Source: an uncultured Elusimicrobia bacterium (GTDB lineage Bacteria > Elusimicrobiota > Elusimicrobia > 2-01-FULL-59-12). Taken from it: a stretch of DNA of 64,000 bases. Where the stretch lies: positions 1,344,001 through 1,408,000 of the forward strand of contig OY969767.1 in NCBI GenBank assembly GCA_963702895.1, written 5' to 3'. The translations under genes were made by a program, and so were the position numbers. Below are positions 6,720 to 54,986 of the stretch, one piece after another. Every line of letters starts with the position of its first letter. Positions within the stretch are counted from its first letter, which is position 1. The notes below the pieces were generated by a model. It searched no databases. It saw only the letters and a list, made by a program, of their open reading frames with translations, and was not told the DNA's origin.

Positions 6720-8423
6720 CTAAGAGGCCAATGCCTGGAGCGCTTTCTTCATGGCGTCCTGCAAGATCACCTCTTCCGCCACGGGTGCTGAACGTTTACG
6801 GAGCTCCACTTTCCCCTCGCTCAATTTGCGTTCCCCCACCACCAGACGAACGGGAATGCCGATTAAATCCGCGTCTTTGAGCTTGACACCCGCGGTCGCG
6901 TCCCGGTCGTCCAGAAGGACATCCCCATGCTGCGAAAGCGCTTCCTGGTAGAGCTTTTCCGCCACTTCCTTCACCTTGGGATTCGAGACATTGAGCGGCA
7001 CAATGACGAGCTTCCAAGGCGCGAGGGCGATGGGCCAGACGATACCGTTGGCGTCGTGGCATTGCTCGATACAGGCCGCCACCACACGTGAAACCCCGAT
7101 ACCGTAGCAGCCCATGACGAAAGGTTTGGCCTTCCCTTGAGGATCGAGGTAGGTGGCCTTCATGCTGTCGGAATACTTGGTGCCCAGTTTGAACGTGTGC
7201 CCGACTTCGATACCGCGTGCATACGCCATCGGTTGGCCGCATTTGGGGCAGGGGTCCCCGGCAGCCGCTTTACGCAGATCGGCATAGCGTTCTGGCTTAA
7301 AATCCCGTTCCGGGACAACGTGTATCAGGTGTTTGTCCTTCTGATTCGCACCGCAAACCCCCTCTGTCATGGAACGTATGGCGTAATCGGCAACCATCTT
7401 GGCTTTCGACCCCACGGGCCCCGCAAATCCAACAGGGGAACCAGAGAGTTGTGTGTAAGTCGCTTCATTGGCTTTCACCACGCGAGAGACACCCAGAAGG
7501 CGCTGTAATTTGGCTTCGTTGAGTTCATGGTCTCCGCGCAGGAGCACCATCACGGGTGCTTCATCCGCCAAGACCACCAGAGCCTTGATAAAGTGCTGGG
7601 CCGGTTGATGGACTATTTTGGCGACGGCATCGACGCTCGAGGCGCCCGGGGTAGTCACTTCCGTCCAAGGTCCGAGGTCCGACGCCGGACGTCGCACGTC
7701 GGCCGGCTTGGGAAGTTCAGCGCGCTCCACATTGGCCGCATAGCCACAGGAGCAGCTGACGATGCCCTCTTCCCCCGTCTCGGCCAGGACCATAAATTCG
7801 TGAGAGAAGGAGCCGCCAATGGCCCCCGACTCCGCTTCGACGGGCCGGAACCTCAGTCCGCAGCGCGTAAAGATCTTTTGATAGGCTTCCACCATGCGCT
7901 TGTAGTACTGCTCGACATCGGCCTCATCGGCATGGAAGGAATAGGCATCCTTCATGAGGAATTCGCGCGCGCGCATCACCCCGAAGCGCGGCCTGATTTC
8001 ATCTCTGTACTTCACGCCGAATTGATAAAGCATCACGGGCAACGAGCGATAGGAGCGGATTTCTCTTCGGACAAGGTCTGTGATCACTTCCTCAGCCGTG
8101 GGCGCGAGACAAAATTCGGCTTCTTTGCGGTCTTGGAGTCGCATCAGTTCTTTGCCATAAAGACCCCATCGGCCGGTCTCCTCCCAAAGCTCTTTCGGCT
8201 GAAGTTGCGGCAACCAGACCTCTTGCCCCCCTGCGGCGTTCATCTCCTCGCGGACGATCTGCTCGACATGCCGCAGGACGCGAAGCCCCATGGGGAGCCA
8301 TTCGTAGAGGCCGGCGGCGAGTTTTCGAATCAGGCCCGCGCGCAGCATGAGCTGATGCGAGACGGTTTCCGCATCACTCGGAAGTTCACGTTGCGTCGGG
8401 ATAAAGGCTTGAGAGTATCTCAT
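6720..8423 (-). CDS. proS: Proline--tRNA ligase (with INS editing domain)
   Basis: SHQLMLRAG, RDEIRPRFGVMRAREFLMKDAYSF, GIEVGHTFKLG, MGCYGIG. Confidence 0.98.
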   Translation of the reverse strand: MRYSQAFIPTQRELPSDAETVSHQLMLRAGLIRKLAAGLYEWLPMGLRVLRHVEQIVREEMNAAGGQEVWLPQLQPKELWEETGRWGLYGKELMRLQDRKEAEFCLAPTAEEVITDLVRREIRSYRSLPVMLYQFGVKYRDEIRPRFGVMRAREFLMKDAYSFHADEADVEQYYKRMVEAYQKIFTRCGLRFRPVEAESGAIGGSFSHEFMVLAETGEEGIVSCSCGYAANVERAELPKPADVRRPASDLGPWTEVTTPGASSVDAVAKIVHQPAQHFIKALVVLADEAPVMVLLRGDHELNEAKLQRLLGVSRVVKANEATYTQLSGSPVGFAGPVGSKAKMVADYAIRSMTEGVCGANQKDKHLIHVVPERDFKPERYADLRKAAAGDPCPKCGQPMAYARGIEVGHTFKLGTKYSDSMKATYLDPQGKAKPFVMGCYGIGVSRVVAACIEQCHDANGIVWPIALAPWKLVIVPLNVSNPKVKEVAEKLYQEALSQHGDVLLDDRDATAGVKLKDADLIGIPVRLVVGERKLSEGKVELRKRSAPVAEEVILQDAMKKALQALAS

Positions 8424-9497: not shown

Positions 9498-10714
9498 ACA
9501 AGAAGCTCCTTGGCGGTTTGGCGTGCCCATTGGTCTACAACCAACACGTGCTCGAGGCTCAGGCGCGCCGCACCTTTATGTTTCGACAACGTTTTCTCGA
9601 CAATTCTAGCAATGTCTGGAAAGCGGATCTGTCTGTTGAGGAACGCCTGGACAGCGATTTCGTCCGCGGCGTTCAGGACAGTGGGCCAACTGCCTCCCTT
9701 GCGCGCGGCTTCACGCGCCAGCGTCAAGCAGGGAAAGCGTTTGAAATTGGGTTCCATGAACTCCAGCTGCCGCACTTTGACCAAATCGAGGGTCTTCAGT
9801 CTTCCCGGACGCCTCGAAGGATAGGTCAGGGCGTATTGAATGGGAAGGCACATGTCCGGCCAAGAGAGCTGTGCGAGCATCGCCCCATCGGTAAAGTCGA
9901 CCAGAGAATGAACAATGGATTGCGGATGGATCACGATCTGAACACGGTCGATCGGAAGCCCGAAGAGAATCGAAGCCTCGATGGTCTCGATACCCTTATT
10001 CATGAGCGTCGCGCTATCGATCGTGATCTTTTTTCCCATTTTCCAGGTGGGGTGGTTGAGGGCCTGCTCGACCGTGACGCGGGAAAGGTCCCCCTTGTAC
10101 TGGTAGAAGGGCCCACCGGAAGCCGTCAGGATCAATCGATGAACATCCCGGCTCCGGGAACCTTGCAAACATTGGAAGATCGCAGAATGTTCGCTATCGA
10201 CGGGCAAGAGCGTGGCCTTCCAGCGGCGCACCTCGGCCATCACGAGTTCGCCCGCCATGACCAAGGCTTCTTTATTGGCCAGAGCAACGGTTTTGCCGGT
10301 CCGAATGGCCGCCAGGAGCGGCCGCAGGCCGATCGCGCCCACGACGGCGGACAAGACCACATCGGCGCCTGGCCACTGGGCCAGCTCCACTAAGCCTTCC
10401 ATCCCTGAGAGGACGACGAGCGCTTTGCCGCGGACACGCATGCCAAGATCACGGATCTTTTTCGCCTCGGGTTCTTCCCAGACCGCCACCGCTTCGGGCT
10501 GGCATCTCTTGATCTGTTCCAGCAACCGCACCCGATTCCCGTAGGCGCTCAATGCGACCACCCGATAGGAGGGTCCGAGGCGCTCCATCACATCGAGGGC
10601 GTTGACCCCAATGGAACCCGTCGAGCCCAGCAGGACGACTCGACGCTCGGGCAAGGGACCCTCGCGCAGCCGGCTGCGTTGAACGGATGTTTTCTCTGGC
10701 ATGAGAGTCGTCAT
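9494..10714 (-). CDS. dxr: 1-deoxy-D-xylulose-5-phosphate reductoisomerase
   Basis: LGSTGSIG, LANKE, PVDSEH, LTASGGPF, HPTWKMGKKITIDSAT. Confidence 0.98.
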   Translation of the reverse strand: MTTLMPEKTSVQRSRLREGPLPERRVVLLGSTGSIGVNALDVMERLGPSYRVVALSAYGNRVRLLEQIKRCQPEAVAVWEEPEAKKIRDLGMRVRGKALVVLSGMEGLVELAQWPGADVVLSAVVGAIGLRPLLAAIRTGKTVALANKEALVMAGELVMAEVRRWKATLLPVDSEHSAIFQCLQGSRSRDVHRLILTASGGPFYQYKGDLSRVTVEQALNHPTWKMGKKITIDSATLMNKGIETIEASILFGLPIDRVQIVIHPQSIVHSLVDFTDGAMLAQLSWPDMCLPIQYALTYPSRRPGRLKTLDLVKVRQLEFMEPNFKRFPCLTLAREAARKGGSWPTVLNAADEIAVQAFLNRQIRFPDIARIVEKTLSKHKGAARLSLEHVLVVDQWARQTAKELLV

Positions 10715-46627: not shown

Positions 46628-47559
46628 AAGTGTTCCAACGCCCTGAGCTTCGCGCTGCGGGACCGGGGGTTCGTCTGGACCTCCGTCTCGCTGGGGCGCA
46701 CGGGCTTTCTTTGCAAAAGTCTGCCCCAAGGCTTCCGGTGACACACACATTGAGGAAACCTCGGCGGGCATACACAGCCCTTGACCGCGGCTTGAAAGGC
46801 GGTCTTGACGCGACGGTCCTCCAAAGAGTGGAACGAGATCACCGCCGCTCGCCCCCCGGGAGCCAAATGCTGTTCAAGGCCGTCCAGAGCGGATTGCAGA
46901 TTGGCGAGTTCGCCGTTCACCGCGATACGCAGGGCCTGGAAGCACCGGGTGGCAGGATCCATTCGTTGCAGCGGCGTTGACGTGGTCTTGCGGATGAGCT
47001 CCGCCACCTTCCAAGCGTCATTGCTCAGCGTATGATTTCGGATCGCCTGCGTCAGCGCACGCGCGATCTTTCGCGCCTGGGGTTCTTCCCCATACTCGCG
47101 GAACAACCGCGCGAGCTCCTCTTCGGAGGAATGCGTCAAGACTTGCCAGGCGGTCTGTGTCAAAGACTGGCTCATCCGCATGTCCAGCGGCCCCGGACGC
47201 AGGAAACTAAAGCCCCGGTCCGAGTCCTGGAGCTGCATGGAGGAGAGCCCCAAGTCCAGAAGGATCCCGTCGGCTGTCTCACGACCCCTCTGAGACAGAA
47301 CAGACGGGAACTGGGCATAACTGGCCGCGACCCCTTCGAAGCGTTCGCCAAAACGGGCAAGACGCGTGGTGGCATGGTCCAGGGCCTCGGTGTCCCATTC
47401 AAGGCCCAAGACCTTCATACCCGGGTAGCGCTCCAAGAGCCTTTCGGAATGCCCCCCCAGACCCAACGTCCCATCGATCACCAACGCGGGACCCGGAAAC
47501 GAAAAAAGCTCAACGACCTCCTCCGCCAGGACGGGGACGTGCTCGTGGACCACGCTCAC
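46624..47559 (-). CDS. rsmH: 16S rRNA C1402 methyltransferase
   Basis: HVPVL, DGTLGLGGHS, DLGLSSMQL, FQALRIAVN, NPRSRSAKLR. Confidence 0.98.
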   Translation of the reverse strand: MSVVHEHVPVLAEEVVELFSFPGPALVIDGTLGLGGHSERLLERYPGMKVLGLEWDTEALDHATTRLARFGERFEGVAASYAQFPSVLSQRGRETADGILLDLGLSSMQLQDSDRGFSFLRPGPLDMRMSQSLTQTAWQVLTHSSEEELARLFREYGEEPQARKIARALTQAIRNHTLSNDAWKVAELIRKTTSTPLQRMDPATRCFQALRIAVNGELANLQSALDGLEQHLAPGGRAAVISFHSLEDRRVKTAFQAAVKGCVCPPRFPQCVCHRKPWGRLLQRKPVRPSETEVQTNPRSRSAKLRALEHL

Positions 47560-48005
47560 AGCGCCAGTTGCGGTGCGACTTTTTCGAAACTGACTCGCGC
47601 CACTTTGCTGTAACGGCTCCAGTGTTCCCGGGACCACAATTCGACGTGTCGTAAAACCCCCAAAATGACCACCTGGCGCTTCAGGCCGGCATAGTCCTTT
47701 AAATGCTGAGGGATCAGAATCCGGCCTTGCGCATCGATCTCGGCTTCACAGGCCGCGGAAAGCAGCACCCGCTTAAACGCGCGCTCCTGCGCTTTGTCCT
47801 TCAAGGCAAGCGCGTCCAGTTTCGCGGCCAGGTGGTCCCAATATTTTATCGGAAAAAGAAACAAACACCGCTCCAGGCCCTGGGTCAGCACGTAATCGGC
47901 GCCATGGGATTTTTCGCGGAAATGCGACGGAAGAAAAAGCCTGTTTTTGCCGTCCAGGCCGTGCTCGTACTGCCCGAGGTAACGATAGACTCTACTTTCC
48001 ACCAC
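47556..48005 (-). CDS. mraZ: Transcriptional regulator MraZ
   Basis: G.YEH.LDGKNRL.LP, D.QGRILIP; first gene of the dcw cluster. Confidence 0.95.
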   Translation of the reverse strand: MVESRVYRYLGQYEHGLDGKNRLFLPSHFREKSHGADYVLTQGLERCLFLFPIKYWDHLAAKLDALALKDKAQERAFKRVLLSAACEAEIDAQGRILIPQHLKDYAGLKRQVVILGVLRHVELWSREHWSRYSKVARVSFEKVAPQLAL

Positions 48006-48052
48006 TTTTCCCCACTGGGCTCTAGTATACCCCCCGAGGGAGTTTCTGTCAA
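47990..48052 (-). promoter_or_regulatory. dcw promoter and MraZ boxes
   Basis: TTGACA-17-TATACT (48052-48024), then GTGGGGAAAA GTGGTGGAAA GTAGAG at 10-bp spacing overlapping the GTG start. Confidence 0.8.
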
Positions 48053-48094: not shown

Positions 48095-48128
48095 GAAAGG
48101 CCTCCCACCGTGGAGGGTGGAAGGCCTT
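48095..48128 (-). terminator. Probable terminator after rnpB
   Basis: AAGGCCTTCCACC-loop-GGTGGGAGGCCTT followed by only a short T tract. Confidence 0.55.
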
Positions 48129-48137
48129 AAGGAAAGT

Positions 48138-48970
48138 GAAAGCTGCATTCTATACACCGAATTCTGTACGGCAACGGCAAACGTCGTAAATGGTAAATGG
48201 TGAAGGAGGAATGGTGAAGAGTTCGATAGAACATAACGATTCACCATTTTCTATTTACTATTTACGCCGTCTGCCGTCACCGTCGAGCGCCATTCTTCTG
48301 GGCGACGACCTCGAGTGCGGACGAGCCGGGACCAGCTCTCCTCGAACCCCGGGAACGGCAAACGTCGAAAATAGAAAATGGAAAATAGCACTTTCTCATC
48401 TCTCTATTTTCGATTCTCTATTTTCGCCGTATGCCGTTCCCGGCATCTTGCTCCGGATGGGGTTTGCCTTGCTCCCTTCGTTACCTCAGGGACGGTGAGC
48501 TCTTACCTCGCCATTTCACCCTTACCCGTCACGACCAACTCAGGGTTCAGAGCTCAGAACTCAGAGAGGGCGATGGTTTTATAAGAATCATCCTTATCTC
48601 TGAGCTCTGAGTCCTGAATTCTGAGCTGGCCGTTCCAGGCGGTGTATTTTCTGTGGCACTTTCCGTTGAGAACGGCAAACGTCGTAAATAGTAAATGGTG
48701 AATCGTGAACAGTATTTGCGCATGCTCCTACTCACTATTTTCTATTTACTATTTACGCCGTCTGCCGTTCCCCCCCTGGCTTGCGCCAGGCATCCTGCCC
48801 ATGGAGTTCGGACTTTCCTCCCACCTCCGCTCATTCTTGCGCTTCGCGCGGCGATGAGCTACGGTGGGCAAGCCCCCCCTATAAAAAAGGGGCCTGCCCG
48901 CCATAGCTCTGCCGCAGCGCGTTAGCGCTAAGAGCGGGCGGAGGCGGGCGGCGCTCCGAATGCAGCTTTC
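48138..48970 (-). ncRNA. rnpB: RNase P RNA (type A-like), expanded to 833 nt
   Basis: 13-bp P1; GAGGAAAGUCCGAACUCC, GGAAAGUGCCACAGAAAA, GGUAAGGGUGAAA, GGCAAACCCCAUCCGGAGCAAG, AGAAGAAUG, ACAGAAUUCGGUGUAU in canonical order. Confidence 0.95.
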
Positions 48971-48990
48971 AAAGAGCGAACAACAAAAGC

Positions 48991-49707
48991 TTAAGCAGCC
49001 GGGACTTCTTCGAGATAAACGATGCGCGAGCAGGACTCGCAGCTGACGATCTTATGGCCGCGGCGCAATTCAACGATCAGGTTTTGTGAGACCTTCATGT
49101 GGCAGCCGGAACATTGCCCTTTGAGAATCGGGACCACCGTGGCCCCGCGCTTGCCGTTGCGCAGCGTGGAATACTGGTGGGCCAGGGGCTTCGCGAGGGA
49201 GGCCAGCGCCTGCGCGCGCTCGGCTTGCTTGGCCGCGATGGTTTTTTCGAGCTCTTTGCCCCTGGCTTCCCATTCCAAAATCTGTTGCTGGAGCGTTGTT
49301 TCGTGACCTTGGGAGTCCGCCTCTTTTTGCTTCCAGACTTTGGTCGCCTGGTCGATCTGCTCCATCAGCTGCAAAATTTGGTCTTCGAGCGACGATTTGA
49401 CCTGCTTGGCTTTATCAATCTCGCCAAGCAAGGCTTTATAGGCTTCGTTGGTTTTGATGGCATTCAGGTCCGTCGAATGCTTACGAATGGCCGTTTCCTG
49501 GACGTCCAGGTCCAGCTCCTTCTGCTTCTTCGTGAGCTGAAACTGGTTCAGCTCTTTCTTCGCAGACTCCAGCGCCGTTTTCTCTGCCTGGATCTCCCCC
49601 TTTAAGCCGGCGACCCTGCCAGGGACTGACGCCAGTTCATTTTGAAGCCGGTCCAACTCGAGATCCCTTTCCTGTAGGGACAAGAGCAACTTGATGTCGT
49701 CTTTCAT
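48991..49707 (-). CDS. Coiled-coil C4 zinc-ribbon protein (DUF164/CT398-like)
   Basis: LL.LQE.D start, long coiled coil, CSGC..CESC.RIVY. Confidence 0.9.
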   Translation of the reverse strand: MKDDIKLLLSLQERDLELDRLQNELASVPGRVAGLKGEIQAEKTALESAKKELNQFQLTKKQKELDLDVQETAIRKHSTDLNAIKTNEAYKALLGEIDKAKQVKSSLEDQILQLMEQIDQATKVWKQKEADSQGHETTLQQQILEWEARGKELEKTIAAKQAERAQALASLAKPLAHQYSTLRNGKRGATVVPILKGQCSGCHMKVSQNLIVELRRGHKIVSCESCSRIVYLEEVPAA

Positions 49708-52336: not shown

Positions 52337-52407
52337 TGGGATGAGTGAACGCCCCGCGCTGCGCCCAATTTCTGCTTTCTGCTCTCTGCTTTCTGCCCTG
52401 AATTTAT

Positions 52408-52484: not shown

Positions 52485-52558
52485 TGGGCCCGGAAGGACT
52501 TGAACCTTCAACCCTCCAGTTATGAGCCGGACGCTCTAACCGATTGAGCTACGGGCCC
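52485..52558 (-). tRNA. tRNA with CAT anticodon, probably Ile2 (Met not excluded); CCA not encoded
   Basis: GGGCCCG TAGCTCAATCGGTTAGAGC G TCCGG CTCATAA CTGGA..GAAGG TTCAAGT CCTTC CGGGCCC A. Confidence 0.93.
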
Positions 52559-52639
52559 TTTACAACCAGCTCAGAACTCAGAAGGCAGAGTTCAGAAATA
52601 TTCACTGGTTGCCAAATCTGCGTCGACGCATTTTACAAA

Positions 52640-52990: not shown

Positions 52991-53934
52991 GACGTTTCTC
53001 CTTTGACTGAGTGTAGCACATCGGCAAGATTCACCCCGCCGTTGAGCCAGTCGAGTGGCGGTCTCTGCATTTGCCCCAAAGGACATAGGCGTGAAACACC
53101 AAGCCCCTGCAGGTCTCGTTCGAGCTGTTCCTGCCGACCAGTCTCGCCCGCATAACCCACGCAAGAAAGATGCGGCGCGAGGGTTCGCATCTTGTCGAGC
53201 ACATCCTGCCAGCGCTTGAACCCTTCCAGGCGTGGTGCCACCTCCAGTGCGGCCCCCAAGGCCTGCCACTGACTCGGGTCCAAATTTTCCACAAAGATCA
53301 CCTGCGGTGACAAGCAGCCCTGGAGCCGAAAGGGTTCAGCATCAGCGATGATTCGGTCCATCCAGACGTTCGAGAGTTCCTTTTGGGCTTCTTCAAAGAC
53401 AACCCCGACGCTCAGTTGATGACCATACCCAACAAAGCGTGTCCCAGCAGGCACAGAGGCTTGGACGAGCCGAAGGGTCTCATCGGACCCATAGGCCACC
53501 ACGACATCAAAGTCGCACAACAACGTTTCACTCCACGCCACGATGTCGACTAATTCTGAGAGTCTTTCATCCATACGCTCAAGCGACTTCTTCCATGCCA
53601 TTGGAAAGACAGGCTCCCGAAACGATGGTTTAAGGGCCACCTTCCAACCCGATAGGAGGCTTAGCACAACCCCATGGACCCAGGCGGTAAAGGCGTTCGC
53701 CGGCAAGATATGGAGGACCGTTCGTCCGACGTTCGACGTCCGACGTCCCGACATCCATTGGAGGAGTTTCTCACACGTAAGTTCTTCAAAACAACTCGCA
53801 AGCGCGCGCTCGATCGAACGGCGGCTATAGCCAGTTGAAACTTGAAGGGCCTGGATCGTTTCCGACCGGAAGGCGTCGTCCGGATTCAGCCATCGCTCCG
53901 CAACCTGACCCAAATATTCTATCCGATGGTTCAT
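52951..53934 (-). CDS. LuxC-like acyl-CoA reductase
   Basis: VLHILPAN, LKPS.REP.F, VVAYGSDET, YGHQLS, QGCLSP, GVSRLCPLGQMQ.PP..W. Confidence 0.85.
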   Translation of the reverse strand: MNHRIEYLGQVAERWLNPDDAFRSETIQALQVSTGYSRRSIERALASCFEELTCEKLLQWMSGRRTSNVGRTVLHILPANAFTAWVHGVVLSLLSGWKVALKPSFREPVFPMAWKKSLERMDERLSELVDIVAWSETLLCDFDVVVAYGSDETLRLVQASVPAGTRFVGYGHQLSVGVVFEEAQKELSNVWMDRIIADAEPFRLQGCLSPQVIFVENLDPSQWQALGAALEVAPRLEGFKRWQDVLDKMRTLAPHLSCVGYAGETGRQEQLERDLQGLGVSRLCPLGQMQRPPLDWLNGGVNLADVLHSVKGETSWENQHKVPSIGA

Positions 53935-54986
53935 GTTCGATAGGCCTCCGCCGATAGCGAACAACCCCGGACCTCAGCATTCGGAGCCCGACCAAGCAGA
54001 TGAAAAGCGTCGGACGTCGAACGTCGGACGGACGTTCCAAGGTCCTCCGTCTGAACAGCCATCACGGAATCCACATTGGCCAGGTCAAAATGCCGCAAAA
54101 GGCCGGTTTCGCCTTCCTTGGCGAGTCCACCCGTCACCGAATCCACAACGATGGTTCGCGTCCAAGGAGGTCCTTGGAGAGAGGAAGTCCCCCCTCGTCC
54201 ATAGAATTGAGAACTGAGCTCACACATTCCATATTCATTAATGCATGCTTCTTCTGGGATGCCCAGGGATACTGTCACTTGCTGCACAAATTCTGGCCTG
54301 GTCACCTGGCGTTTCTCTGTTTTCATTCCCCCCGTATCCATCAACCGGCTGCCAGGAGGAAGACGAAATATCTTTCCCGTCTTGCTTAGATAATCAAAGA
54401 ATTTCAGGAAGCTAATCGTTGTGCCCAAGAGAGCCACCGGCACTCCGGTACTTTCCGACTCGCAAAGTTTCCGGAAGAGTTGTGTCTCGAGGAGAACACC
54501 TCGTTCGATGAAGGTGCCGCTACCGGGTGTGCCAAATTTGCGCTTGACGACCTCCAGCATCCAACTCAAGGAAGAGTGCGGGGCCTCCGCTGGAGCCGGC
54601 GCTAACACCAGCATGGGCAGGCGCGCCTGGTCCGGCAAGACTTGAGATGAGAAAAAGCTCTCAAGCGAGCTCTCGTAGTAGCGAAGTGTCCGAAGATAGT
54701 GTTGGCTCCGGGACGATGAGGTCGTGCCGCTCGAACGAAACACCGCCGCCGCTTGGGCCACAGGAAAGGTGGCCAGCTCAGAGGACTTAAAGGCGGACAC
54801 GGGAACCGCGGGAATTTCCTGCCAGGTCTGGATCCGCACCGGACTCAGACCCTGCGCGCGGCAAAAGGCCTGATAGGGTTTGTTGCGCGCAAACTGATAG
54901 GCAAAAAGTTCAAGGGCGACAGACTCAAAATCACCCGTGCCCGTGCGCAAGAATTGCTCGATACGCTGTCCAAGGCTTTCGGTCAT
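53931..54986 (-). CDS. LuxE-like acyl-protein synthetase
   Basis: IPAVP..AFK, FRSSGTT, MDTGGMK, NEYGMCELSSQ, DLAN, TEDLG, LGR..AEVRGCS. Confidence 0.88.
   Translation of the reverse strand: MTESLGQRIEQFLRTGTGDFESVALELFAYQFARNKPYQAFCRAQGLSPVRIQTWQEIPAVPVSAFKSSELATFPVAQAAAVFRSSGTTSSSRSQHYLRTLRYYESSLESFFSSQVLPDQARLPMLVLAPAPAEAPHSSLSWMLEVVKRKFGTPGSGTFIERGVLLETQLFRKLCESESTGVPVALLGTTISFLKFFDYLSKTGKIFRLPPGSRLMDTGGMKTEKRQVTRPEFVQQVTVSLGIPEEACINEYGMCELSSQFYGRGGTSSLQGPPWTRTIVVDSVTGGLAKEGETGLLRHFDLANVDSVMAVQTEDLGTSVRRSTSDAFHLLGRAPNAEVRGCSLSAEAYRT

Follow-up and report, generated by a model that had tools for sequence, protein, structure and literature searches.

An 835-nt RNase P RNA gene in an Elusimicrobia bacterium with heptamer-repeat hairpins in four peripheral helices and an extended P3

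The DNA analysed here (the window) is a stretch of 64,000 nucleotides from an uncultured Elusimicrobia bacterium (GTDB lineage Bacteria; Elusimicrobiota; Elusimicrobia; 2-01-FULL-59-12), positions 1,344,001 to 1,408,000 of contig OY969767.1 in assembly GCA_963702895.1. It carries rnpB, the RNase P RNA gene, which a sequence-only reading of the window had put at about 833 nt and described as colonised by repeat hairpins. The Rfam model RF00010 matches positions 48247-48888 on the minus strand with 123.2 bits against a gathering score of 100, and with 117.2 bits in a search of the whole genome. That alignment is local and places both gene ends wrongly. The ends were fixed by a perfect 14-bp inverted repeat that forms P1, giving a class-A gene of 835 nt from P1 to P1 and bearing out the claimed size. 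Lineage-specific additions make up about 460-490 nt of this length and consist of four heptamer-repeat hairpins (rods) and one extension of P3, which therefore leaves a core of 345-380 nt. All of the additions lie in peripheral helices and the core is free of them (Table 1).

Segment lengths were measured between seven conserved motifs used as anchors in nine rnpB genes, eight of the same family and one (genome G011) of the same order. The P5-P10 segment is 144 nt here versus 59 nt in the shortest relatives, P12 is 123 nt versus 26 nt (genomes G003 and G009), P15-P17 is 147 nt versus 70 nt, P2/P19 is 123 nt versus 27-29 nt (range in relatives 27-38 nt) and P3 is 127 nt versus about 25-35 nt. 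P9 itself measures 20-25 nt in G003 and G009, and P3 is short in these two genomes and at locus L032. This anchoring, together with the eight relatives of the family, confirms the earlier placement of the repeats in P19, the P15-16 region, P9 and P12. Every addition forms one self-contained hairpin, both in the minimum-energy fold of the whole RNA and when folded alone (-46.8 to -99.1 kcal/mol).

Three of the rods, c1 in P19, c2 in the P15/P16 internal loop and c3 at the tip of P9, are copies of a single element and lie where the sequence-only reading had put them. They are direct repeats of 81-97% identity (family D1 at 48173, 48354 and 48671; family D2 at 48241, 48401 and 48732) and each is also an inverted repeat, with GC-rich ends ACGGCAGACGGCG ... 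CGACGUUUGCCGU and arms of AAAUAG-type heptamers. Closing pairs lengthen c1 to 48168-48281 and c2 to 48349-48443. The fourth rod, in P12, belongs to a second repeat family, and Tandem Repeats Finder (TRF) reports period 7 in it with 4.0 and 4.3 copies; the seven period-7 arrays that TRF finds inside rnpB together span all four rods. Each rod is a near-perfect duplex of some 36-44 pairs, A/U-rich in the middle and GC-rich at the ends, and the loops, which reach about 35 nt at most between the arms, leave no room for an open reading frame (ORF). P3 is extended as had been claimed, but its extension is GC-rich and unique in sequence: it is not repeated elsewhere in the genome and shows no period of 7 nt. 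The description of repeat hairpins in five helices thus holds for P9, P12, P15/16 and P19 and fails for P3.

Table 1. Features of the rnpB locus (window positions) and PF05635 genes of the same genome (genome positions, prefixed G000)
Feature	Position	Strand	Basis
rnpB, class-A RNase P RNA gene, 835 nt	48137..48971	-	RF00010, P1 inverted repeat and P1 covariation
P1 5' strand, pairs with 48137-48150	48958..48971	-	perfect 14-bp inverted repeat
P3 extension, long imperfect hairpin, 127 nt	48821..48947	-	fold -99.1 kcal/mol, 55 pairs
P4 5' strand, conserved GAGGAAAGUCCGAAC motif	48806..48820	-	Rfam alignment
c3, AAATAG-type heptamer hairpin, takes the place of the P9 tip	48671..48769	-	direct and inverted repeats; nhmmer E 2.7e-31; fold -49.7 kcal/mol
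P12 rod, CUCAGAG-type heptamers, second repeat family	48531..48633	-	inverted repeat 48531-48578/48586-48633; fold -65.8 kcal/mol
J12/13, P13 and P14 (specificity-domain core), usual size	48472..48526	-	high-confidence Rfam alignment
c2, AAATAG-type hairpin, 5' side of P15/P16 internal loop	48354..48438	-	inverted repeat, 40-nt arms, 90% complementary
P16/P17 with P6-forming loop, then GGU, then P15 3' strand; no P18 after	48301..48345	-	reading of alignments
c1, AAATAG-type hairpin, P19, between P2 3' and P4 3' strands	48173..48277	-	repeats; nhmmer E 1.6e-28
P4 3' strand, ACAGAAUUCGGUGUAUA	48151..48167	-	Rfam alignment
12-bp stem-loop, 10 nt past the P1 3' end	48098..48127	-	read from sequence
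DUF164-type zinc-ribbon protein gene, upstream of rnpB	48991..49707	-	named by sequence reading; rnpB synteny in relatives
mraZ, downstream neighbour, start of the division and cell wall (dcw) cluster	47556..48005	-	named by sequence reading
PF05635 genes	G000 497134, 730125, 811665, 353864, 1170686, 1185185, 1323370, 1647348, 1698211, 2082751		Pfam search

The conserved core of the RNA is intact. Helices were named by homology with Escherichia coli M1 RNA and from the Rfam alignments; P6 and the GGU that binds the tRNA CCA end were likewise assigned by homology with M1 RNA. Both motifs of the P4 pseudoknot, GAGGAAAGUCCG and ACAGAA..CGG, are present, and the P4 pairing UCCGAA/UUCGG covaries with the consensus CCGGG/CCCGG. 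P2 pairs as GAGCGCC/GGCGCUC, and P1 covaries among relatives (G004, G005 and G006). The P10-P14 specificity core, with its J11/12 and J12/13 motifs, aligns to the Rfam model with high posterior probability, and the J12/13-P14 segment is 47-48 nt long in all nine segmented genes. P8, the P10-J11/12 block, J12/13, P13, P14, P15 and P16/P17 are all present at normal size, and the GGU lies on the 3' side of the P15/16 loop. An alignment of eight rnpB genes of the family has 352 core columns; the gene studied here has a residue in 346 of them and shares all 132 columns that are invariant across the eight, itself included, in agreement with the intact catalytic core claimed earlier. The suspected absence of P18 was likewise confirmed: 0 nt separate the P15 3' strand from J18/2, in place of 24-26 nt, here and in the four relatives with displayed alignments, and P18 is present in G011, which belongs to another family. 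Judging from these alignments, P18 is missing in the family as a whole. Class-A RNAs without P18 exist (Chlorobium), and for that reason we do not treat P18 as defining the class.

The genome of this organism (G000) is a single contig of 2.72 Mb, 98% complete, and contains one class-A match; the other RF00010 match covers only 73 nt and scores 19.6 bits. A second, normal rnpB, which the sequence-only reading had named as a possible objection, was looked for genome-wide among class-A and class-B matches and none was found, protein-only RNase P (homologs of Aquifex RNase P, HARP) not having been searched for. The gene for the protein partner, rnpA, is present (PF00825 match of 95.9 bits, G000 86123-86446). 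Since rnpB is single-copy, rnpA is present, the core columns are conserved, P1 covaries and the additions are peripheral only, we take the gene to be functional, and it is very probably the working RNase P RNA of the cell.

The AAATAG-type element is not confined to rnpB. A profile of the three copies, applied as the genome-wide count that had been proposed, found about 20 further loci. The 20-nt end pattern, with at most one mismatch, matches 18 times in G000, five of them in rnpB, and a reversed control gave 0 matches. In relatives the same pattern is found twice in G003 (both in rnpB), eight times in G005 and once in G007, with none in the other 37 genomes searched. The exact 3' 14-mer of the element occurs three times in the genome, each time in one of the rnpB copies. 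Copies c1 and c3 are mutually nearest (0.93 over 68 arm positions; arms 93-97% identical), and c2 is nearest to arms at G000 812262-812362 (0.90), beside the PF05635 gene at 811665, and then to the copy in G003 (0.88). Because c2 is common to G000 and G003 at the same site, it is the older copy; c1 and c3 are absent from this congener and are, on the same comparison, recent. By eye, the 10 nt on either side of 10 full-length copies show no target-site duplication. PF05635 was the one gene encountered between arms, no transposase search having been made. At G000 9915-10104 and 714622-714890, AAATAG-type arms surround 110-170 nt of a different repeated GC-rich hairpin element, an arrangement of nested elements.

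The loci nearest to this rnpB are in Elusimicrobiota metagenome-assembled genomes. It is longer than every full-length rnpB match among 40 relatives and 150 further genomes of the phylum (296-618 nt as matched: 296-520 nt in the 150, up to 618 nt in the 40). Measured by P1, genes of the family run from about 372 nt (G009, the shortest relative) to about 650 nt, with about 468 nt in G003. At least one segment is enlarged in eight of the nine segmented genes, and the heptamers differ from genome to genome. The same GCAATGA-type hairpin sits in P12 and P19 of G006, and heptamer hairpins are found in P3 and P12 of G004, P3 of G007 and P12 of G008; two or three helices are enlarged in each of these four genomes. 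Within one genus (four members), the P15/16 site holds the AAATAG type in G000 and in G003, whose insert is homologous to c2 and at the same site, the CCTCACG type in G002 and a plain hairpin of about 30 nt in G001. Repeats in P12, P19 and P3 also differ among members of the family. In another family of the same class, G022 (locus L029, G022:C127) carries one CAGGG/AGGGGTT heptamer family in P3, P12, P16/17 and P19; its contig ends within the last rod, in P19, so that its rnpB must be longer than the 618 nt seen. Contig breaks in L032, L033 and G001 fall within P9 or P12. Other heptamer hairpins stand at the same helices in relatives; gain is therefore recurrent, and multi-site colonisation is a trait of the lineage. 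Multi-site invasion, earlier called unusual, is so by comparison with the literature searched; within this lineage it is not, for G022 has at least four sites and G004, G006, G007 and G008 have two or three enlarged helices. The gene described here is the extreme complete case seen.

Two further observations concern rnpB in relatives. An insertion of about 50 nt with two small hairpins occurs in the P13 5' strand at L123 (G002), L026 (G010) and L029 (G022), a site that is empty here. A metagenome scan with a genus-specific 17-mer matched at least 121 stretches. In none of the 80 loci examined was the match followed by J18/2 (AGAAGAATGG) or the P4 3' strand (ACAGAATTCGG), so that none of these is an rnpB; the pattern is too short for that collection.

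The repeat families of the rods recur around a class of protein genes. G000 has ten genes of PF05635, the '23S rRNA intervening-sequence protein' family. At G000 811544 and 812330-812362, AAATAG-family arms enclose an ORF of 110 aa that matches PF05635 with an E value of 6.7e-26. By eye, all ten PF05635 genes adjoin arrays of short period (7, 8 or 16 nt), which often run inverted from one flank to the other, as with TTTTGGA x4 and CCAAAAT x4 around 2082751-2083047. TRF at strict thresholds missed most of the degenerate arrays beside these genes, and lag-match detectors were used in its place. A stringent detector, which requires 17 of 21 positions to match at a lag of 7, 8, 14 or 16, places an array within 300 nt of eight of the ten genes, compared with 5.9% of 20,000 random intervals. 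We also compared each P1-defined rnpB with the 350-nt flanks of the PF05635 genes of its own genome, drawing on 25 PF05635 matches in five relatives. The longest exact word shared by rnpB insert and flank is 21 nt in G000, 18 nt in G007 and 17 nt in G008, above an off-diagonal background of 9-14 nt with two exceptions (16 and 17 nt) that involve shared element ends. Because the same repeat families bracket PF05635 genes, the rods in rnpB are best read as gene-less copies of PF05635 hairpin cassettes, a reading that the word test supports in three of six genomes.

Beside the PF05635 genes, a CATCTAAGG-like motif was seen by eye 10-40 nt upstream of seven of the ten starts and of many in relatives; it may represent either a ribosome-binding context or some regulatory element. 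At G000 1170686-1171769 a PF05635 gene is followed by five tandem CTCAGAG hairpin units about 120 nt apart and then by tRNA-Val.

Across the genome, the excess of periodic segments is specific to 7, 8 and 16 nt (130, 144 and 135 segments, versus 1-7 at lags 4-6, 9-11 and 13). Estimates of array enrichment against non-coding space are rough. An array lies within 150 nt of eight of 48 tRNA genes, compared with 3.6% of random positions; most random positions fall in coding sequence, so the comparison demonstrates no enrichment over non-coding DNA. Further period-7 arrays in the window lie at 7663-7702, 52369-52396, 52570-52583, 53723-53748 and 54008-54030 (G000 1351663, 1396369, 1396570, 1397723 and 1398008; units GTCCGAG/GTCGGAC, TTTCTGC, CTCAGAA, CGTCCGA and CGTCGGA), and two of them adjoin tRNA-Met at 52485-52558. 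No signal recognition particle (SRP) RNA was found in G000 by RF00169, RF01854, a motif search, BLAST or a fuzzy search seeded from G003. RF00169 finds SRP RNA in one of 12 relatives, and the missing match is probably a problem of sensitivity.

The sequence-only reading had also noted a conserved arm mismatch, G-U on the RNA strand and A-C on the other, as a sign of selection at the RNA level. The G-U is present in c1 and c3 (arm position 7), two nearly identical copies that arose by recent duplication, but the same position is U-U in c2. The argument for selection proved weak, with sense and antisense folding energies nearly equal (c1 -46.8/-47.9, c2 -52.7/-50.3 and c3 -49.7/-46.7 kcal/mol): the gap is at most 3 kcal/mol in the three copies and the c1 difference is in the wrong direction. 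Between G000 and G003, the 11-bp closing stem of c2 shows two compensatory double changes and one change from G-C to G-U. These changes are better evidence for pairing than the G-U mismatch, and would fit selection on the RNA and on hairpin DNA equally.

On the chromosome, the DUF164-type gene directly upstream of rnpB is conserved across the family (including L032-L035), and rnpB also lies downstream of a DUF164 gene in Borrelia, according to an excerpt of PMC3372290. A promoter-like site of mraZ lies at 48024-48052. The stem-loop just past rnpB is possibly a terminator or a processing hairpin; it is without a strong U tract, and a terminator scan of it raised no flag.

STRR (short tandemly repeated repetitive) heptanucleotides in P12 of rnpB were reportedly described by Vioque in 1997 in heterocyst-forming cyanobacteria. 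The likeness to these repeats proposed in the sequence-only reading is apt, given the tandem 7-nt units, the self-paired P12 rod and relatives with unrelated repeats. In both systems the core is untouched, a peripheral helix of the RNase P RNA is lengthened by self-paired tandem 7-nt units, and the repeats of closely related strains are unrelated to one another, which implies recent and independent gains. The case described here differs in its phylum, in having four sites (P9, P12, the P15/16 loop and P19) rather than one, together with the P3 extension and a length of 835 nt, and in that a single dispersed element, its GC-rich ends conserved, supplies three of the rods. The repeat families here also bracket PF05635 genes. 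In the open-access literature we found no paper on RNase P RNA of Elusimicrobia and none linking PF05635 or the intervening sequence (IVS) protein to STRR or heptamer repeats, and, the cyanobacterial case apart, none of the matches listed describes an rnpB with repeat or IVS inserts.

Other systems share single traits with the rods. In Coxiella burnetii, an IVS in helix 45 of 23S rRNA carries an S23p/PF05635 ORF and is removed by RNase III, as stated in passages of PMC4990558. Like the rods, an rRNA IVS is a selfish-looking stem-loop at a helix tip of an essential stable RNA, with a long complementary closing stem and a link to the same protein family; the host here is RNase P RNA, the organism's own rRNA genes have no insert, and the rnpB copies lack the ORF, which is missing from the rod loops and is found at G000 811665, where arms of the rods' own repeat family flank it. 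In its native host, the Thermodesulfatator indicus P RNA is cut to either side of the A/U-rich portion of an expanded P12, and it still complements E. coli (PMC9945441). It resembles the present RNA in being of class A with an expanded peripheral helix and an A/U-rich middle, and differs in having one such site where four rods occur here. MITEs (miniature transposable elements with inverted repeats) and repetitive extragenic palindromes (REPs) in structural RNA genes (PMC3184786, in part) are likewise short, dispersed, hairpin-forming and non-coding; the element here differs in its 7-nt periodic arms, in the lack of a visible target-site duplication and in that only PF05635 was seen between arms. 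A genome-wide excess of 7-nt tandem repeats is shared with Xanthomonas and Nostoc (PMC4692102) and with the TAACTGA repeats of Beggiatoaceae (PMC4679880), which the cited sections describe as intergenic arrays and not as inserts in a ribozyme gene. Unlike those heptamer-repeat genomes, the present genome has an equally strong 8-nt class.

Together these results describe a minimal class-A ribozyme of about 345-380 nt (P1, P2, P4, P5-P8, P10-P14 and P15-P17, with P6 and the GGU) that carries four self-complementary rods of degenerate 7-nt repeats and a P3 extension, all in outward-pointing helices. The rods belong to genome-wide families of inverted heptamer arrays, copies of which lodge in, or survive only at, the helix tips of rnpB. 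A self-closing hairpin at such a tip would merely lengthen the helix and leave the catalytic fold intact. The rods would be neutral passengers. As a whole, we hold this explanation with good confidence. Several points weigh against it. Two of the ten PF05635 genes have no stringent array nearby, and the exact-word test does not rise above background in the other three genomes (13 nt in G003, 12 nt in G004 and 11 nt in G006). Of the four rods, whose repeats are degenerate, c3 alone is picked up by the stringent lag-7 detector, and the number of hairpins counted genome-wide varies with the threshold. By a crude mask, 226 of 320 arrays fall inside ORFs of at least 120 aa; the union of such ORFs leaves 7% of the genome uncovered, which makes the mask too crude to place arrays, and a claim that the arrays are mostly intergenic is unsupported. 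No rods were found in the other stable RNAs: tmRNA is 369 nt and 16S rRNA 1551 nt, and 23S rRNA, at 3011 nt, has no long inverted repeat. Among public sequencing runs, the best holds 6% of the sampled words, and the contigs recovered from X1, X2, X4 and X7 represent conserved cores from other bacteria, in which P12 and P9 are short.

The passengers need not stay in the RNA. RNase III or some other endonuclease could remove the rods from the transcript with no rejoining of the ends, giving a mature ribozyme of up to five non-covalent pieces. The near-perfect duplexes with A/U-rich middles would suit such cleavage, an RNase III gene (rnc) is present, the same repeat families bracket PF05635 genes whose homologous rRNA IVS in Coxiella is reported as excised by RNase III (PMC4990558, in part), and the cleaved P12 of T. 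indicus offers a precedent in the portion of PMC9945441 already cited. With cuts at four sites, however, a fragment of some 35 nt running from P10 to J11/12 would be anchored solely by P10/P11 and stub helices, and such an assembly looks fragile. Cyanobacterial RNase P RNAs with STRR repeats, moreover, are reportedly treated as intact molecules. We regard excision as a real but lesser possibility, and retention as somewhat more likely than excision at one or more sites. A contig of 176 nt (depth 3.2) from the RNA library of run X1 matches 48441-48512 with 0 differences and 48276-48351 with 4, and has 28 other letters in the place of c2; we take it to come from a close relative whose hairpin there is short, and not to bear on processing. 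It is a bolder step to see the heptamer-armed cassettes, whether or not they hold a PF05635 gene, as mobile inserts aimed at the helix tips of highly expressed structured RNAs, with RNase P RNA split into up to five pieces by excision of the kind known for rRNA IVSs, and this we think unlikely. Because tmRNA, 16S and 23S rRNA are not colonised, a general target of that kind lacks support.

A role for the rods, in replacing the contacts of P18 and the L9 tetraloop or in binding proteins such as PF05635 products, could be argued from the loss of P18 in the whole family, the recurrence of rods at the same helices in many relatives and the closing stem of c2, in which compensatory changes have preserved pairing since G000 and G003 split. 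G009 and G003, however, manage with short helices that lack rods, close relatives have rods of unrelated sequence, c1 and c3 are recent and missing in G003, and the strands fold with nearly equal energy; we consider such a role improbable. That nearly 60% of the gene looks foreign, with HARP outside the search, might suggest a decaying or silent rnpB whose work is done by a second copy or a protein-only enzyme. The absence of a second class-A or class-B match, the retained rnpA, the 132 shared family-invariant columns, the perfect pairing or covariation of P1, P2 and P4 and the restriction of inserts to peripheral helices make this very improbable. Equally remote is an assembly artefact in which repeats were mis-joined into rnpB. 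Short-read assemblies of relatives do break at these sites, but the present genome is a single 2.72-Mb contig, complementary closing pairs flank each insert and continue the host helix, the stretches common to the copies are shorter than 40 nt with differing loops, and G003 independently has the homologous insert at the same site.

Lengths of rnpB span 250-550 nt with a class-A mean of 374 nt, according to the part of PMC7191817 cited here, and at 835 nt this gene lies well beyond that range and is the largest in about 190 Elusimicrobiota genomes sampled. Genes with rods break short-read assemblies at the rods, and annotation by covariance models misplaces their ends. The findings tie the long-unexplained heptamer repeats of bacteria to PF05635 cassettes within a gene of known structure, and they carry a cyanobacterial curiosity of 1997 into a different phylum and show it at several sites of a single gene. 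Excision of the rods, should it occur, would give the organism a multi-piece bacterial RNase P. Overall the gene shows how much passenger RNA a bacterial ribozyme can carry, and where; its load at mapped positions therefore provides a natural insertion map of tolerated sites, comprising P3, P9, P12, the 5' side of L15 and P19.

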